Source: Promethearchaeota archaeon
GTDB taxonomy: Archaea; Asgardarchaeota; Lokiarchaeia; Sigyniarchaeales; SOKP01
Direction: 5' to 3'
Assembly (NCBI GenBank): GCA_016930515.1
Contig: JAFGGO010000106.1
Location: 1 to 50,434, forward strand
DNA length: 50,434 nucleotides
Shown here: one piece after another, positions 29,483-36,671 of the stretch
Position numbering within the stretch: position 1 is the stretch's first letter
Layout: each line of letters opens with the position of its first letter
Made by a program: the position numbers and the translations under genes
Notes under the pieces: generated by a model
What the model was told of the DNA's origin: nothing
The model's database searches: none
Seen by the model: only the letters and a program-made list of their open reading frames with translations

Positions 29483-29764
29483 ATGGTAAAAATAGAATTA
29501 AACTTGCTCAACATTTTCCAGCTCAAGGTTGGGAAAAGAGCAATAATTTACGAGGGAGACACCGTACAAGACGTGATCAGTAAATTTTTGAATCAATACG
29601 GAGAACATCTCGACGCCCAGATATTGAGCAATGATAAAAAAAGGCTTGGCAAACAAATGGTAATAATCCTTAACGGGCGTAATATAGACCACCTTCAAGG
29701 ATACGATACTAGATTAAAAGTGGGGGATATGCTCTACATTTCTGCACAATTAGCTGGGGGATAG
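29483..29764 (+). CDS. Ubiquitin-like beta-grasp protein (SAMP/MoaD/Urm1 family)
   Basis: ILNGRNI..L.G.DT.LK.GD and C-terminal LAGG. Confidence 0.9.
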   Translation: MVKIELNLLNIFQLKVGKRAIIYEGDTVQDVISKFLNQYGEHLDAQILSNDKKRLGKQMVIILNGRNIDHLQGYDTRLKVGDMLYISAQLAGG

Positions 29765-29878
29765 CGATCTCTCGATCTTAATTCTAACTTGGATTGCATG
29801 AAATAATTTATAAATGTCCAATATTATAATATTTTTAATAATTTCATATTAGTTTGTAATATTATGGAATGAAACATC

Positions 29879-30814
29879 ATGACGAGTAAAATCATATTTC
29901 TTGGATTAGACAACGCCGGTAAAACAAGCATTATCACCGCTATTTCAAAACGTTTTGGATTCGAAGAGGAAGTCATGAATTTAATCCCCACGAGAAGGAT
30001 CGATAGGGACACATTTTCTTTCTTGGGCTTGGAATTCTTGCGTTTTGACATGGGCGGGCAAGAACAATACAGGGACGATTACTTGAAAAATCCTTCCAAG
30101 TATTTCACGGGAACGGATTTGATATTTTACGTCATTGACGCCCAAGATTACGACAGGTACATAGAATCTATTGATTATCTTGACCAAGTTTTGCTTTTCT
30201 TCAAAGAAGCCCAAGAAAACCCTCCAGTCGCAATTTTATTTCATAAGTTCGACCCCCAACTCACGAACGAAAAAGAGATCAACCAAAAGATCCTCACTCT
30301 CAAGCAAGCACTCACCAAATATTCCCGAGAATTTGATATCTTTTTCTTTGAAACGAGTATTTACGATATCAAAACCATCATGGACAGTTTCTCTAGCGGT
30401 TTATCGCTTTTGTTCGATAAAATGGAGATGGTCTCGCACCTTTTTTCAGAAATCAGCAAGAATTACAACGCTCTTTTGATTTCGCTCTTTGATTCAAAGG
30501 GAATAACGATTGGCGAGTATTATAGGCCCCATCTACATTTAAACGAGAAATTGAAGATATACGATCTTTACATCGAAGCACAACGGAGAATTATCGAAGA
30601 AAACCGGGACATGTACGAGTTTTCCGACAAATTCGACAATGGAAACCGTTTTTCAGGCGTCGTTGAGGCCTTAACCTTTGGAAACATGCATTTTTACTTG
30701 CTCTTCATCATCGAGGAGGACGAATCAGATCTAGGAAAAACCATTACCATACTTGATAAGATCGAAGCAGCCAAGCCTCAAATGGAGAATATAATTCTGC
30801 AAATTATTCAATAG
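29879..30814 (+). CDS. Rag/Arf-like small GTPase with C-terminal roadblock-like domain
   Basis: GLDNAGKT, DMGGQ, HKFD, ETSIYD; C-terminal ALLISLFDSKGITIGEY. Confidence 0.85.
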   Translation: MTSKIIFLGLDNAGKTSIITAISKRFGFEEEVMNLIPTRRIDRDTFSFLGLEFLRFDMGGQEQYRDDYLKNPSKYFTGTDLIFYVIDAQDYDRYIESIDYLDQVLLFFKEAQENPPVAILFHKFDPQLTNEKEINQKILTLKQALTKYSREFDIFFFETSIYDIKTIMDSFSSGLSLLFDKMEMVSHLFSEISKNYNALLISLFDSKGITIGEYYRPHLHLNEKLKIYDLYIEAQRRIIEENRDMYEFSDKFDNGNRFSGVVEALTFGNMHFYLLFIIEEDESDLGKTITILDKIEAAKPQMENIILQIIQ

Positions 30815-30923: not shown

Positions 30924-31027
30924 CGCAGATGGAGGGATTTGAACCCCCGCGCGCTTACGCGCACCAGCTTGCTCGAATAACAGAAAGAGTTCTCGAGGCT
31001 GGCGTCTTACCACTAGGCTACATCTGC
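30924..31027 (-). tRNA. tRNA-Ser(CGA) with 22-nt intron at canonical position 37/38
   Basis: Acceptor GCAGATG/CATCTGC plus G73; anticodon stem CCAGC/GCTGG with loop CT-CGA-G^A; long variable arm; GTTCAAATC T-loop; intron 30970..30991; CCA not encoded. Confidence 0.92.
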
Positions 31028-31147: not shown

Positions 31148-31447
31148 TTAAGTTGGCACATATATTTTGATTTTCAGCGAGGGATCCAATAATTTAATCG
31201 ATCCTTCGTCTAAATATTGTTTTAACAACAAGTTTATCGCAGACACTCGAATTTCGTACTTGAGTGCGATATCCGTGGCGAGAATCGCTTTCTTTTTCAA
31301 GATAAACTCTTTTATGTCTTTTTCAAGCGATTTTGGAATGAACGCGTCCCGTTCGACGATGTCAATCTTTTTCGCCCTTCCGTACTTCTTCTTCAGATTA
31401 ACAGATGCCTTCCTGACTAATAATTTCTCTTCCTTTTCGGACAACAC
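31148..31447 (-). CDS. rps25e: Ribosomal protein eS25-like
   Basis: Basic N-terminus plus winged helix (ILATDIALKYEIRVSAINLLLKQYLDEGSIKLL...KIYVP). Confidence 0.7.
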   Translation of the reverse strand: MLSEKEEKLLVRKASVNLKKKYGRAKKIDIVERDAFIPKSLEKDIKEFILKKKAILATDIALKYEIRVSAINLLLKQYLDEGSIKLLDPSLKIKIYVPT

Positions 31448-31602
31448 TAACCACGACTTTCGAGCGTTTTTTTTTGAAAACTAATAAGGTTTGAATTTAT
31501 AAATAAACGAAATTTAATAAAATTTGTGGTTTGAAGAAGAAGGAACCTTCAAATTTCGGAATTCTATATTTTAATATTAAATCTATATGTGGTTAATAAG
31601 AA

Positions 31603-32238
31603 GTGGACGACGATTATCTTTTTAATGTGAAAAAAAAGCGCCCTGAAGATTCGTACGAGCATGTTTCCGATTATTTCAAGGGAGAAACACTTACGCAATA
31701 TGCTAACTCAAAAAGCGTCATGCGAACGCAAGAAAAAATTACAATTAGGGCCCTTGAACTTCTAGATTTGAAGCAGAAGCGCGCATTCATTCTAGATGCT
31801 GGTTGTGGTCCTGGTTTTGTGGGCATGTATCTTAAAGAAATAGGATTCAATGTTGTAGCAATTGACCTCTTATCGGATTTTTTGACTTATTATAACATTA
31901 GCGAGCTTAATCCCGTCCAAGCCGACATGTGTTTTCCTCCTTTTAGAGAAGCCAGCTTCGATGCTATAATTTCAATTTCAGCGCTACAGTGGATTTTTAG
32001 TGATCTATCCAATCCAAATACGCAGCATTCCATGAAATATTTAATATCTGCTTTTTATAGAATTCTTAAACCAAATTCTAAAATCGTTTTTCAATTTTAT
32101 CCCAAAAGTAATAATTTTTTAGACGAACTTGGTCGTATTATTAAACAGGAATCGAGTTTCAATGGTACTTATGTGATTGATAATCCTGAAAATCCTAAAA
32201 AGCGTAAAATCTATCTTTTTTTAGAAAAAACCGAATAA
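31603..32238 (+). CDS. Class I SAM methyltransferase, Bud23/WBSCR22-like
   Basis: RPE, Q..IT.RALELL, ILDAGCG, PFR..SFDAIISISALQW, QFYP, F.G..VID.PE..K..K.YL all match the Bud23 motif order. Confidence 0.82.
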   Translation: MDDDYLFNVKKKRPEDSYEHVSDYFKGETLTQYANSKSVMRTQEKITIRALELLDLKQKRAFILDAGCGPGFVGMYLKEIGFNVVAIDLLSDFLTYYNISELNPVQADMCFPPFREASFDAIISISALQWIFSDLSNPNTQHSMKYLISAFYRILKPNSKIVFQFYPKSNNFLDELGRIIKQESSFNGTYVIDNPENPKKRKIYLFLEKTE

Positions 32239-32396: not shown

Positions 32397-35300
32397 ATGA
32401 AATATAAAAATATGAAATTAAATTCAACGATTCTAATTGGTTTAATCCTTATTAGTTCATTGCTTTCGATTTCCATGCCTACAAATTTTAATAATAAAGA
32501 AAATGAAATAAAAGACGAAGATCAATTCATTGAAGATATTTTAAACACAAACGCCATTGGAGAAGATCCGTGGTGGAATAGTTCTTTTCAATGGAGAAAA
32601 TGCTTATCAATAACTAATCCAGGAACATATAACTTAATAGATAATTGGGTATATTTAACAATCGATCTTTCGGATTCAGATTATGTTGGAAGAATCCAAT
32701 CCAATGGAATGGACTTGAGAATTGTAGAAAATGGAGTAGTTAGAGATTATTGGGTAGAAGTGAACCACCCTTCGAGTGGAATGTTAACCATTTGGTTTGA
32801 AGCGAATTCTACTGCGGGAGAAACAGATTACGACACGTACATGTATTTCGGAAACAATACGATTACGTCCAGAGGCTCAACTCATGTCTCTGAAAATCCA
32901 GGAGGTCTCATGTGGTTGAAGTTTGACGAAAGCTCCGGGACGACCGCTTCTGATTATATGGGAAATTATGATGCCACTCTCGTAGGTTCTCCCGTATTTG
33001 TCACGGACGCCGCTCAAGGGAGTCACTCGTTAGATTTTGATGGAACGGGCGATTACGGATACATTAGCAAGAGTTATAACGCCGCAAACGCCGTTCCCGA
33101 AATGACGGCTTGCGTCTGGTTTAAGACTTCATTTACTGCCCCCCCATCTAGCACTACTTACGATAGTAGCAATTGGGCCTTCCTCGATTTTGATAGATCA
33201 GAATATTGGAATTTTTACATTCGGGGAGACAATGGGAAAATAAGTTATTCAACGACATCAACATCCGGAGGGACGGACGATTTTGATAGCAACACGGATT
33301 CTTTAAACGACGGTGCTTGGCATTTTGCCTGCGTGGTCTACGACGGTAGTGATAAAATAATATATATCGGCGGCAACGAGGACGCTCGATTGCCGGCCAG
33401 TTCCGCACACAACGGCTATGGTCTCGGTACGGGAACTCTAAGGTATGGAATCATAGGAGACGGTTCTGAGGCAGATGCCTATCCACCAACGGCGACAAGC
33501 GAACGGAACGATATTTATTACGACGGTCAAATGGACGACCTGCGCTATTGGGAACGAGCACTTTCGCCAGGAGAAATTGATTGGTTAGCCAATTATTACG
33601 ACATGTCAATCACACCTTTATCCTTAACTGAAAAATCCGCCACCGTTACTGTTGTCGTGAAAGATATTGACGGCAGGCGAGTTCCTGGAGCAGAAGTTCA
33701 GCTCTGGAACGGTTCAGAAGTCGTGAACGTCTCCGGATTTACCTCGTTAACGACTGATTCGAACGGAGAAGTCGAATTCTCGGGTGTTTCCTTTGGATCT
33801 TATAACATGACAGTAAATTACACGATCTCGTACGACTCAACGGTTTGGGAAGAAATCGTTTACGATAGTAGGACGATAACGGGAGGAGAATTCAGCTTTG
33901 TGGGATTAATCGTAACTGAAACAATACACGCTAATTTATGGACGATCGATTTTGATATCAACGACTTGGACGGCGATCCCTTGTACTTGGGATACATTGT
34001 CGTTAATTCAAGCGATGTAGTAATGGCAAACCTCACGCTCAACTCGGCGGGAACGGCGCAATTCCGTTGGTTGTACAATTCGGAGGGATATAACTACAGC
34101 ATATATTACTTCAATCGGGACATTGCGATCCAGCCGAGCACTGGAACCTTGATAAAGTGGGGAACTGCAACTTATGGTACGATATCTGAAATTTATGATG
34201 TTATATCAAATGCAGTATCTCCGTATCCAGAAACTTATGTAGTTGATAAGACAAATTTCGTACCAGGATCTAGTTTAGGAGTTTCTGGAGCTCAGAAAGC
34301 CGTAGAGATCCACCTAAATTGCGAAAATATGAACGATAACATCACAAGAATATCAACAGCATATTACCAACCTTCTGTAAACCCAAAAGATATTATTGAT
34401 GAATTTCCTGAGGCTACTTCTGCTTCAATCGAATATCTTCCATTAGACGATGGAGTTTCTGTTTATGGTTTTCAATTCATAGTTTCTGGAGAAAATTTAA
34501 CTACTTGCACGGGGACCATCACGCTCAATATAACATACACACACATGGAACAAGTTACCGTAAACCTCACGAAACTTACAATTACGGTCATTGATAATGT
34601 ATATTGGGATGCCATTCCTGGCATGGACATTCGCGTGGAAATTAACGGCACCACGGATGTAGTGGTCGACAAAGGTTTATCTTACGGATTGGAAACCGAT
34701 TCAGACGGCGTTGCTCGGGGTAAGATAAACGCAAACACGGTGTTCTGGTACAAGCAAGGTATTTATAATATATCAGTATGGCCAATACCCTCTTTGATGT
34801 ATCAAGTACTTGTCAACGACACATCAGATCCCAGCCAGATACCCCCTGGAGATCCACAATTAAACGGATATGAATTTAATCTAACATCAGCTTCGTGGAT
34901 AATTCTAGAAGCGAAAATTGATTCTGCCAATGATCAAACCCTATTCGAAGACTATACGGTTTATCGAGAATCCAACCCAGATGTGGAAATATCAAATGTT
35001 ACTTGGGGAGAAAACTTCACGGTATTTGCCAATTTGACTTATACCAACGATGGGGGCAACTCGTGGAATCCTGATGATAATGTTAACACGATAATTTATT
35101 GCACGGTAAAAAGCACGCTTGCTGGAAATCCAGTGTTATTCGTTAGAATAATGTCGTTTGATGGAGATGGTGGGTATAGTATAGAGTTTAATTCGAGTAT
35201 TTTATCTGCAGGAACATCGAGTAAATCGTATATCTTTGAACTAACAGGTAAAAAAGTGAATTATCGAAGACCCGATCCCGTTTCGTTTAGTTTAACCATC

Positions 35301-36671
35301 CTCACGCTCTCCACGGGATTAACATTGCACGAATACGACCCTAGCGACTCCACGCCCGACGAATTGCCAAAAAAACCAACGAATCAGAAATATTACACCT
35401 CGGTCTATTACGGGAGAACGCTAAACATTACCATGAGGTATTTTGACTCGAGTTCCAGTTCAACTTTAACTCCAGACACATATACATATTATTGGGAAGA
35501 CGATTCGGGAATTATGTCCGGTTCACTCGTTCAAGACCATGCTCATTCAGGGTATTGGGTTCTCTCTTTTGATAGCTCTCTATCAAGTATATCTAAAGAA
35601 TATTCTGTTCGAGTAACCATTGGACTCCAAAATCATACCAGAAAAACTAATTACGAGTTTTTCATTACGGTAAATCAAAAACACACGACACTTAACGGTT
35701 CTGCCACTCCAATCTACACTTTAAGAGAAGATGTTTGGGTAAGAGACGATAAAATAATTTACTTTGAATACAACGATTCTGACGACGATCAAAGGCTTGG
35801 ATCGTTAAACACGAATACTGTATATTGGTACAAGCAAGGCGAAAATGGTACCGACACGGTATTTCCTTCAACCGTCTTGGTTGAAACGACAGACAAATTA
35901 CACGCGCTCGATTTAAGCACGGGAGATCTATCGGTTGGGGTGTACATAATTCAGATAACGATCAGCAAGAATCAATACGAATACAAGTCTATCGCCCTGA
36001 CATTATACATTAACAAAAGACCAATTCATACGGGTTACGAAGATATCTTCAAAACGATAGATCAAGGAGCATCCTTTAGGATAACATTAAATTTAACAGA
36101 TACATCAAATAATTCCGTTCCAATTACAAATGCAATGATATACATTACAGGGTCCTTTGGGAATTTGAGCTTCACGGAAACCCAAACGCCCGGTATATAT
36201 TACCTTGACTTTCCAACATCGAGATACGACACTTTCTTCCAACCCATAACCATTAGGGGTACGATATACATGGAAAAAGAACTTCACGAAACTACAGAGA
36301 TTAGCGTTGTATTGACAATCGAAATGCCTAAAGTTGGTGGCATTCCTACATTCTATCTCATCATGATAATAGGGGCCGTGGTTGCGGTTGCAGGAAGCTT
36401 GGGAGCTTATAGATGGGTTCAATTATCGAGAATTCCAAAATTTGTCAAGAAAAACAAGGTGCTCCGAAAGACTATCAATAACAAGGGAACGATCTCGGAA
36501 TCTGACATGTATCCTCCGAAAGAGCAAGCGATAGCGAAACTCTTGGGAAACCGATGGGACAAAATTGGCATCTCTCTTGAAGATGTGCTGGGAGTTGGAC
36601 GGCAGAAAGGCAAGAAATTGCTCAATAAAGCGGAGGATTCCACTACAGACAAGGATGGAGGTGAGTCGTAA
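32397..36671 (+). CDS. Large cell-surface protein: signal peptide, DUF2341-like, LamG/ConA-like lectin, Ig-like repeats, C-terminal TM and ~80-aa cytoplasmic tail
   Basis: WWNSSFQWRK, DLRIV, YMYFGN, W.KFDESSGT.A.D, SLDFDG..DY, DGAWHF, G.MDDLRYW.RALS; many N-x-S/T sequons; TM FYLIMIIGAVVAVAGSLGAY. Confidence 0.85.
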   Translation: MKYKNMKLNSTILIGLILISSLLSISMPTNFNNKENEIKDEDQFIEDILNTNAIGEDPWWNSSFQWRKCLSITNPGTYNLIDNWVYLTIDLSDSDYVGRIQSNGMDLRIVENGVVRDYWVEVNHPSSGMLTIWFEANSTAGETDYDTYMYFGNNTITSRGSTHVSENPGGLMWLKFDESSGTTASDYMGNYDATLVGSPVFVTDAAQGSHSLDFDGTGDYGYISKSYNAANAVPEMTACVWFKTSFTAPPSSTTYDSSNWAFLDFDRSEYWNFYIRGDNGKISYSTTSTSGGTDDFDSNTDSLNDGAWHFACVVYDGSDKIIYIGGNEDARLPASSAHNGYGLGTGTLRYGIIGDGSEADAYPPTATSERNDIYYDGQMDDLRYWERALSPGEIDWLANYYDMSITPLSLTEKSATVTVVVKDIDGRRVPGAEVQLWNGSEVVNVSGFTSLTTDSNGEVEFSGVSFGSYNMTVNYTISYDSTVWEEIVYDSRTITGGEFSFVGLIVTETIHANLWTIDFDINDLDGDPLYLGYIVVNSSDVVMANLTLNSAGTAQFRWLYNSEGYNYSIYYFNRDIAIQPSTGTLIKWGTATYGTISEIYDVISNAVSPYPETYVVDKTNFVPGSSLGVSGAQKAVEIHLNCENMNDNITRISTAYYQPSVNPKDIIDEFPEATSASIEYLPLDDGVSVYGFQFIVSGENLTTCTGTITLNITYTHMEQVTVNLTKLTITVIDNVYWDAIPGMDIRVEINGTTDVVVDKGLSYGLETDSDGVARGKINANTVFWYKQGIYNISVWPIPSLMYQVLVNDTSDPSQIPPGDPQLNGYEFNLTSASWIILEAKIDSANDQTLFEDYTVYRESNPDVEISNVTWGENFTVFANLTYTNDGGNSWNPDDNVNTIIYCTVKSTLAGNPVLFVRIMSFDGDGGYSIEFNSSILSAGTSSKSYIFELTGKKVNYRRPDPVSFSLTILTLSTGLTLHEYDPSDSTPDELPKKPTNQKYYTSVYYGRTLNITMRYFDSSSSSTLTPDTYTYYWEDDSGIMSGSLVQDHAHSGYWVLSFDSSLSSISKEYSVRVTIGLQNHTRKTNYEFFITVNQKHTTLNGSATPIYTLREDVWVRDDKIIYFEYNDSDDDQRLGSLNTNTVYWYKQGENGTDTVFPSTVLVETTDKLHALDLSTGDLSVGVYIIQITISKNQYEYKSIALTLYINKRPIHTGYEDIFKTIDQGASFRITLNLTDTSNNSVPITNAMIYITGSFGNLSFTETQTPGIYYLDFPTSRYDTFFQPITIRGTIYMEKELHETTEISVVLTIEMPKVGGIPTFYLIMIIGAVVAVAGSLGAYRWVQLSRIPKFVKKNKVLRKTINNKGTISESDMYPPKEQAIAKLLGNRWDKIGISLEDVLGVGRQKGKKLLNKAEDSTTDKDGGES

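Follow-up and report, generated by a model that had tools for sequence, protein, structure and literature searches.

The divergent gene pair described here raises a simple question: does an archaeon possess a genuine Bud23, the eukaryotic ribosomal RNA (rRNA) methyltransferase of the small subunit, and if so, what would it do there? The pair lies in the genome of a Promethearchaeota archaeon (Lokiarchaeia; Sigyniarchaeales; SOKP01), within a 50,434-nucleotide stretch of contig JAFGGO010000106.1 (assembly GCA_016930515.1, where we number this contig C159), which we will call the window. The assembly is a metagenome-assembled genome of 4.0 Mb in 190 contigs and is 94% complete; the window is AT-rich, with a GC content of about 35%. 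On the forward strand, an open reading frame (ORF) at 31603–32238 encodes from a GTG start a 211-residue S-adenosylmethionine (SAM)-dependent methyltransferase which comprises the domain only, and on the reverse strand an ORF at 31148–31447, likewise with a GTG start, encodes a 99-residue protein that we assign as ribosomal protein eS25. The 155 bp between them (31448–31602) presumably hold the promoters of both genes. An earlier reading of the bare sequence (the original prediction) had proposed the methyltransferase as an archaeal Bud23 and had placed both ORFs, their head-to-head arrangement and the spacer exactly where we find them. The N-terminus of the methyltransferase, which carries the RPE motif, cannot be longer than assigned, since an in-frame TAA at 31597–31599 sits two codons 5' of the start.

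The eukaryotic Bud23-Trm112 heterodimer makes the 7-methylguanosine (m7G) at yeast position 1575 on late precursors of the 40S subunit and cannot bind mature subunits (PMC5372719, PMC10068337). According to two specialist reviews of the Trm112 network, no archaeal protein is significantly similar to Bud23 (PMC5372719, PMC6144793), and a survey that covered 727 archaea and 301 eukaryotic ribosome-biogenesis factors lists Bud23, does not discuss an archaeal counterpart, and reports no such factor exclusive to Asgard archaea (PMC8481954). Our literature search found no paper linking Bud23 with Asgard archaea, while one annotation pipeline already gives some relatives of our protein the KEGG name '18S rRNA (guanine1575-N7)-methyltransferase'. 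The statement that archaea have no protein significantly similar to Bud23 no longer holds, because of the gene described here and hundreds of relatives at 57–75% identity to it.

A methyltransferase of the Bud23 family

Sequence, fold, family residues and the tree together confirm that the methyltransferase belongs to the Bud23 family and is not a generic Methyltransf_11 protein. A phmmer search of the PDB matched it to yeast Bud23 with an E-value of 2.4e-28 (query residues 24–208) and to human BUD23 with 4e-20, while the best match outside Bud23, a generic methyltransferase, followed at 9e-07, leaving a gap of 21 orders of magnitude. The AlphaFold model, built with 48 homologues, has a mean predicted local distance difference test score (pLDDT) of 95.1. 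When it was compared with known structures in Foldseek, ranks 1 to 8 all went to chains of Bud23 from yeast or human (E 2.5e-18 to 3.6e-15; template modelling score 0.74–0.91 on the target; root-mean-square deviation (rmsd) 1.7–2.8 Å; 30–38% identity), and only then came generic methyltransferases at E 1.7e-10 or weaker and 14–19% identity. With Bud23 (BUD23/WBSCR22) as known from its complexes with Trm112 (TRMT112) (4qtt, 4qtu, 6g4w, 7wtt; KEGG K19306), the protein shares the N-terminal helical cap and the C-terminal strand, and it keeps RPE, ISISALQW, QFYP and D-x-P...K-x-K of the yeast and human domains.

The Bud23 motifs on which the original prediction had relied are all present in order, and in a HMMER alignment they fall on the same motifs of yeast Bud23: RPE at 13–15, QEKITIRALELLDL at 43–56, ILDAGCG at 63–69, PFREASFDAIISISALQW at 113–130, QFYP at 164–167 and FNGTYVIDNPENPKKRKIYL at 186–205. 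The SAM-binding core is formed by ILDAGCGPG at 63–71 and by D88, the acidic residue after β2. For a comparison by residue, three archaeal groups were put into one alignment with 22 representatives of eukaryotic Bud23, so that the residue list is derived from an alignment and not from a crystal structure. Conservation among the eukaryotic sequences is 85% or higher in 65 columns, and in 40 of these our protein has the identical residue; the family residues that it keeps outside the SAM site include R13-P14-E15, Y33, Q43, R49, S124, S126, Q129, W130, Q164, Y166, P167, D193 and P195. Domain databases give a less specific name. Pfam Methyltransf_11 matches with 49 bits, and the names that Pfam and NCBIfam offer are all those of generic methyltransferases, since neither has a Bud23-specific model of the methyltransferase domain; BioC-like matches are below threshold (NCBIfam BioC 45 bits, cut-off 185), and all other NCBIfam matches are also far under their cut-offs.

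The main difference from the eukaryotic protein is at the C-terminus. Eukaryotic Bud23 continues past the domain into a basic extension of about 70–100 residues, a tail that serves nuclear and nucleolar targeting, whereas the archaeal protein ends at residue 211, three residues past the methyltransferase domain, and gives no match to the Pfam model of the Bud23 C-terminal domain (PF12589, WBS_methylT). The extension is thus missing, as had been read from the sequence. The two systems differ further in that the host here is prokaryotic and has no nucleolus and that the archaeal gene is paired with eS25.

Two archaeal types and the question of orthology

An exhaustive, profile-free homologue search collected 1099 representatives at E ≤ 1e-3, of which 257 reach E ≤ 1e-10. 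They include eukaryotic Bud23, 250–340 residues long with an MSRPE N-terminus and a ...DSKYTGRKR tail, and many short forms of 190–230 residues; the ...KYTGRKR tail was found in none of the short archaeal forms examined. Two longer relatives stand apart from both forms. P0123 (412 residues) gives two matches to our protein, as if two Bud23-like domains had been fused in tandem, and P0135 (382 residues) carries an unrelated C-terminal extension of about 175 residues.

In a careful maximum likelihood tree of 59 rows, eukaryotic Bud23 and all the short archaeal forms split from generic methyltransferases with support of 97/91; the grouping with generic Methyltransf_11 proteins that would have spoken against the original prediction is not what the tree gives. 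Within this superfamily four lineages are seen. The eukaryotes form one (100/98); the second, which we call type A (98/96), unites the Lokiarchaeial clade of our protein with a clade from DPANN archaea; the third, type B (99/98; for example L009 and L010), is a divergent archaeal paralogue; and the fourth (91/87; P0138, P0145, P0163, P0168 and P0185) contains short proteins with an MPD..G..P..Y N-terminus and without RPE. Monophyly of the archaeal forms is supported by only 64/58, and the four lineages form a polytomy. The approximately unbiased (AU) test rejects neither a grouping of eukaryotes with type A (p = 0.52) nor one with type B (p = 0.25). Of the claim that this is an archaeal orthologue of Bud23, membership in the family therefore stands on sequence, fold, residues and tree, while strict orthology does not follow, given the polytomy and the two AU values.

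Function can be compared more directly than descent. Type B proteins have the same superfamily, length and fold class as ours; they differ by Q129N, W130F and Q164E, have lost RPE and form a clade of their own. Because of these changes, judged from the aligned residues, type A appears as the better functional counterpart of eukaryotic Bud23. The two types often occur together: in the neighbouring family f3, eS25 is followed by a divergent type A gene and then by type B in tandem (L096 in G143:C1, L097 in G135:C1 and L098 in G138:C1, and also G130, G131, G132 and G133), with type B directly downstream of type A. Our genome has type A only, as its sole copy; type B was not found in this 94% complete assembly. 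It is present in G155, a genome of the same genus. The second match of the family profile in this genome, an ORF at C111:62636–63271 (+), was considered as a type B paralogue and rejected. It encodes a small methyltransferase outside the Bud23 family, closest to one of Bathyarchaeum (E 1e-13); its SFTSLQN motif is reminiscent of ISISALQW.

A probable Trm112 partner split by a central domain

Is the partner encoded as well? A genome-wide search with the Pfam Trm112 model at the default threshold gave no match. At a relaxed threshold, two half-matches appeared on one 213-residue ORF at C27:76506–77147 (+) (L001:1480–2121), and when this ORF was scored as a whole against Trm112p (PF03966, COG2835) it reached 26.8 bits (cut-off 22), residues 8–171 covering model positions 4–39. 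The default search misses it because the match is split by an insert of about 130 residues. The search for Trm112 that the original prediction suggested thus leads to what the sequence indicates is a two-domain Trm112, whose zinc knuckle is interrupted in the middle by a largely helical domain of some 130 residues. The CPxD...CxxC signature is invariant in 24 homologues (C11, P12, D14, C157 and C160) and fits that of archaeal Trm112 (PMC5372719). Homologues of about 207 residues are common in Asgard assemblies, under the NCBI name 'Trm112 family protein'. The model of the protein (pLDDT 87) finds as its best fold matches, all of them weak (E 3e-3 to 0.3), eukaryotic two-domain Trm112/TRMT112 chains exclusively; the central domain is larger than that of the solved eukaryotic chains, which have 111–136 residues as a whole.

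The modelled complex of the methyltransferase with this Trm112 scores 0.88, and the best of three controls 0.01. Of 80 solved complexes 58 attain the mark that is reached here, as do 2 of 110 mismatched pairs. Three runs share at least 98% of contacts, with a partner pLDDT of at least 90. Methyltransferase residues 103–116 are predicted to pack against Trm112 residues 8–13 and 168–175, which is the known β3/β4 zipper, so that Trm112 is placed on the same β3 strand as in Bud23, and the model supports binding through this zipper. Haloferax volcanii has archaeal class I methyltransferases, Hvo_0019 among them, that need Trm112 and use the same β-zipper to bind it (6f5z; PMC6144793). They differ from our protein in lacking the Bud23 motifs, and in Foldseek they match its fold no more than generically (E 2.5e-09, 14% identity).

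Conserved pairing with eS25

The assignment of the divergent 99-residue ORF as eS25, which the original prediction had made, is consistent with our searches, though on weaker evidence than that for the methyltransferase. Pfam Ribosomal_S25 (PF03297) matches over positions 15–99 of 101 with 27.5 bits (E 3.9e-6), slightly below its cut-off of 28.8, and NCBIfam eS25 gives 17 bits against a cut-off of 83; the six best PDB matches are all eS25 (E 0.004–0.26), and the ORF is the only credible eS25 in the genome. The same divergent pair occurs in ten related loci, seven in the same family and three in family f3, where the eS25 orthologues are 38–72% identical and identity of the methyltransferases to ours falls as low as 42–56%. 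These observations support a conserved, not accidental, pairing.

An alignment of eight orthologous spacers is poor (57% mean column identity) except for one central block. This block, the AT-rich and near-palindromic core TTTAATAAAATTT at 31513–31525, is invariant or nearly so in all eight spacers, among genera whose methyltransferases are only 52–56% identical. It lies mid-spacer, at a distance of 66 bp from the start of eS25 and of 78 bp from that of the methyltransferase. It is not a motif of the window at large, since it has one exact copy there and, with one mismatch allowed, 6 matches against 2.5 expected. From its position and conservation, we regard TTTAATAAAATTT as a candidate shared promoter element, possibly of the TATA/BRE (B recognition element) type. 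A scan of the region for sigma-70 promoters and terminators is uninformative in an archaeon.

Proposed function

What does the enzyme do then? The function that we consider most likely, and on balance probable, is catalytic alone: N7 methylation of the P-site guanine on the head of the late pre-30S particle, by an enzyme that Trm112 stabilises. The guanine in question is the second G of GGAAUCCCUAGUAAUCG, yeast G1575 and human G1639, which we take to be G1338 of E. coli, counting back from the universal 1392 primer site. For substrate, position, timing and co-regulation, we infer the following course. The two-domain Trm112 of this genome would stabilise the methyltransferase through the β-zipper, and the heterodimer would dock on the late pre-30S head. 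There the enzyme would flip out the universally conserved guanine and transfer a methyl group from SAM to its N7, giving m7G, and the heterodimer would depart before a transfer RNA (tRNA) can enter the P site. Divergent transcription with the gene of the head protein eS25, probably from a shared promoter region, would tie the supply of the enzyme to production of the small subunit.

Several points weigh against this proposal. To our knowledge the U3 small nucleolar RNA (snoRNA) and the Dhr1 machinery are absent from archaea. It is with the helicase Dhr1, in removing U3 from pre-40S particles, that eukaryotic Bud23 has its essential role, and this role is independent of catalysis (PMC5372719, PMC10068337). 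In those archaeal 16S rRNAs that have been analysed, reviews report no m7G at this site (PMC5372719, PMC6144793), a result that does not bear on the gene, because the species analysed do not carry it. Two relatives with the gene (G143 and G135) have the target motif GGAAUCCCUAGUAAUCG in their 16S rRNA; since the target G is universal, its presence does not discriminate. No 16S rRNA gene was found in the assembly itself. Trm112 is a hub for several methyltransferases, so that its presence is unspecific, and the predictor may have scored the complex highly for having already learned the solved structure of yeast Bud23-Trm112 (4qtt); the score indicates likeness and does not amount to proof. The tree has no power to tell which archaeal branch is nearest to eukaryotic Bud23. 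Finally, the pairing with eS25 was not seen in other Asgard families or in the DPANN loci examined.

The alternative that survives best is that this is a true Bud23-family enzyme with a different substrate or site of action, be it some other guanine of rRNA, a tRNA or a different base, with G1575 recruited as target only in the eukaryotic lineage. There are at least three to four deep archaeal clades, among them a paralogue with altered conserved residues, so that specificity can shift; their branching order is polytomous, and the DPANN members belong to very small genomes with a different ribosome make-up. However, outside the SAM site the clade of our protein keeps RPE, Q43, R49, Q129, W130, Q164 and Y166, its fold is near-identical to that of Bud23 at the rmsd given above (1.7–2.8 Å), and its gene is linked to that of a protein of the small-subunit head. 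We therefore consider another target unlikely, but still a serious contender to methylation of the P-site guanine.

Distribution and origin

Genomes were counted in samples of each phylum, with a family profile that we calibrated on generic methyltransferases, which score no higher than 69 bits (E 7e-19) in genomes that had been reached through their own generic matches. In the Asgard sample the weakest class of matches ends near 1e-26 and members, spanning the whole profile, begin near 1e-40; this break was used for counting. By this measure about 150 of the 400 sampled genomes of the same phylum have a member. It is found in 124 of 134 genomes of the same family, in 13 of 14 of the neighbouring family f3 and in 7 of 8 from three more families of the order or class. 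Members also turn up in two families that belong to other classes (3 of 4 genomes in one, a single member in the other), and none was found in any other family of the phylum that was sampled. Among DPANN archaea the count is 11 of 151 in a Micrarchaeota-type phylum and 7 of 201 in a Nanoarchaeota/Woesearchaeota-type phylum; no member was found in 301 sampled genomes of Thermoproteota or in 201 of Thermoplasmatota. The 'eukaryote-type' flavour which the original prediction gave to the gene is not secured by this distribution: there is no simple Asgard-to-eukaryote signature, because the family also occurs in DPANN archaea and is lacking in most of the non-Lokiarchaeial Asgard families sampled.

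Such a patchy spread, with one Asgard class, few other families and a minority of DPANN genomes, would fit archaeal genes that had come by transfer from eukaryotes, in which case they would be silent on eukaryogenesis, and the tree gives no resolved root within the family that would contradict it. Nevertheless, the eukaryotes form one tight clade that is nested in none of the archaeal ones, the archaeal sequences are more deeply diverged than the eukaryotic and fall into several separate clades, the eukaryotic C-terminal tail is found in no archaeal member examined, and the gene is near-universal and syntenic in its own family, so that we regard such a transfer as improbable. The last alternative, an ordinary Methyltransf_11 enzyme for small molecules or proteins with a superficial likeness to Bud23, could appeal to the generic Pfam and NCBIfam names and to the NCBI label 'class I SAM-dependent methyltransferase' of the relatives, but it is largely refuted already and hardly credible in view of the gap of 21 orders of magnitude in the PDB search, a likeness that covers N- and C-terminal elements beyond the Rossmann core, the profile (generic proteins at most 69 bits over positions ~20–160, members above 160 bits over 5–205) and the separation in the tree.

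Taken together with methylation of the P-site guanine, these results allow a broader scenario, which we put forward tentatively. The Bud23-Trm112 mark in the P site may be pre-eukaryotic and have arisen in archaea, with eukaryotes inheriting the Lokiarchaeial type A enzyme; the ribosomes of Asgard and some DPANN archaea would then carry m7G, and the Lokiarchaeial enzyme would be co-regulated with eS25 via the shared near-palindromic promoter, coupling methylation to assembly of the head. To the family as a whole, the present locus contributes a sole type A copy, the eS25 pairing with its invariant spacer core, the two-domain Trm112 and a complex prediction which passes but may echo the solved structure.

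The finding predicts a specific rRNA mark that would be easy to map, in organisms now amenable to culture, and it would shift the origin of one more 'eukaryotic' factor of small-subunit maturation back into archaea. A minimal Bud23, with no tail, no nucleolus and no processome around it, could also serve to separate the catalytic role of this protein from its role in assembly.

Neighbouring genes

Upstream of the pair, at 29483–30814 of the window, are a MoaD/SAMP-like gene and a gene for a Gtr1/RagA-like GTPase, and downstream of the methyltransferase, at 32397–36671, is a gene for a giant surface protein of 1424 residues. This wider order (SAMP/MoaD-like, Gtr1/RagA-like GTPase, eS25, Bud23-like, surface protein) is syntenic with Loki_b31, and G149 has the same order except for the SAMP gene (loci L006 and L105). 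In these two genomes the GTPase is 57–74% identical to ours and the N-terminal 400 residues of the surface protein about 42–43%. Directly 3' of eS25 and on the same strand, Rfam finds a tRNA gene at 30924–31027 (−) with 47 bits, for which ARAGORN makes no call. The gene has a long variable arm and an insert of about 22 nucleotides after position 37/38 of the anticodon loop; with the anticodon read as CGA, it is probably a tRNA-Ser(CGA) with a canonical intron.

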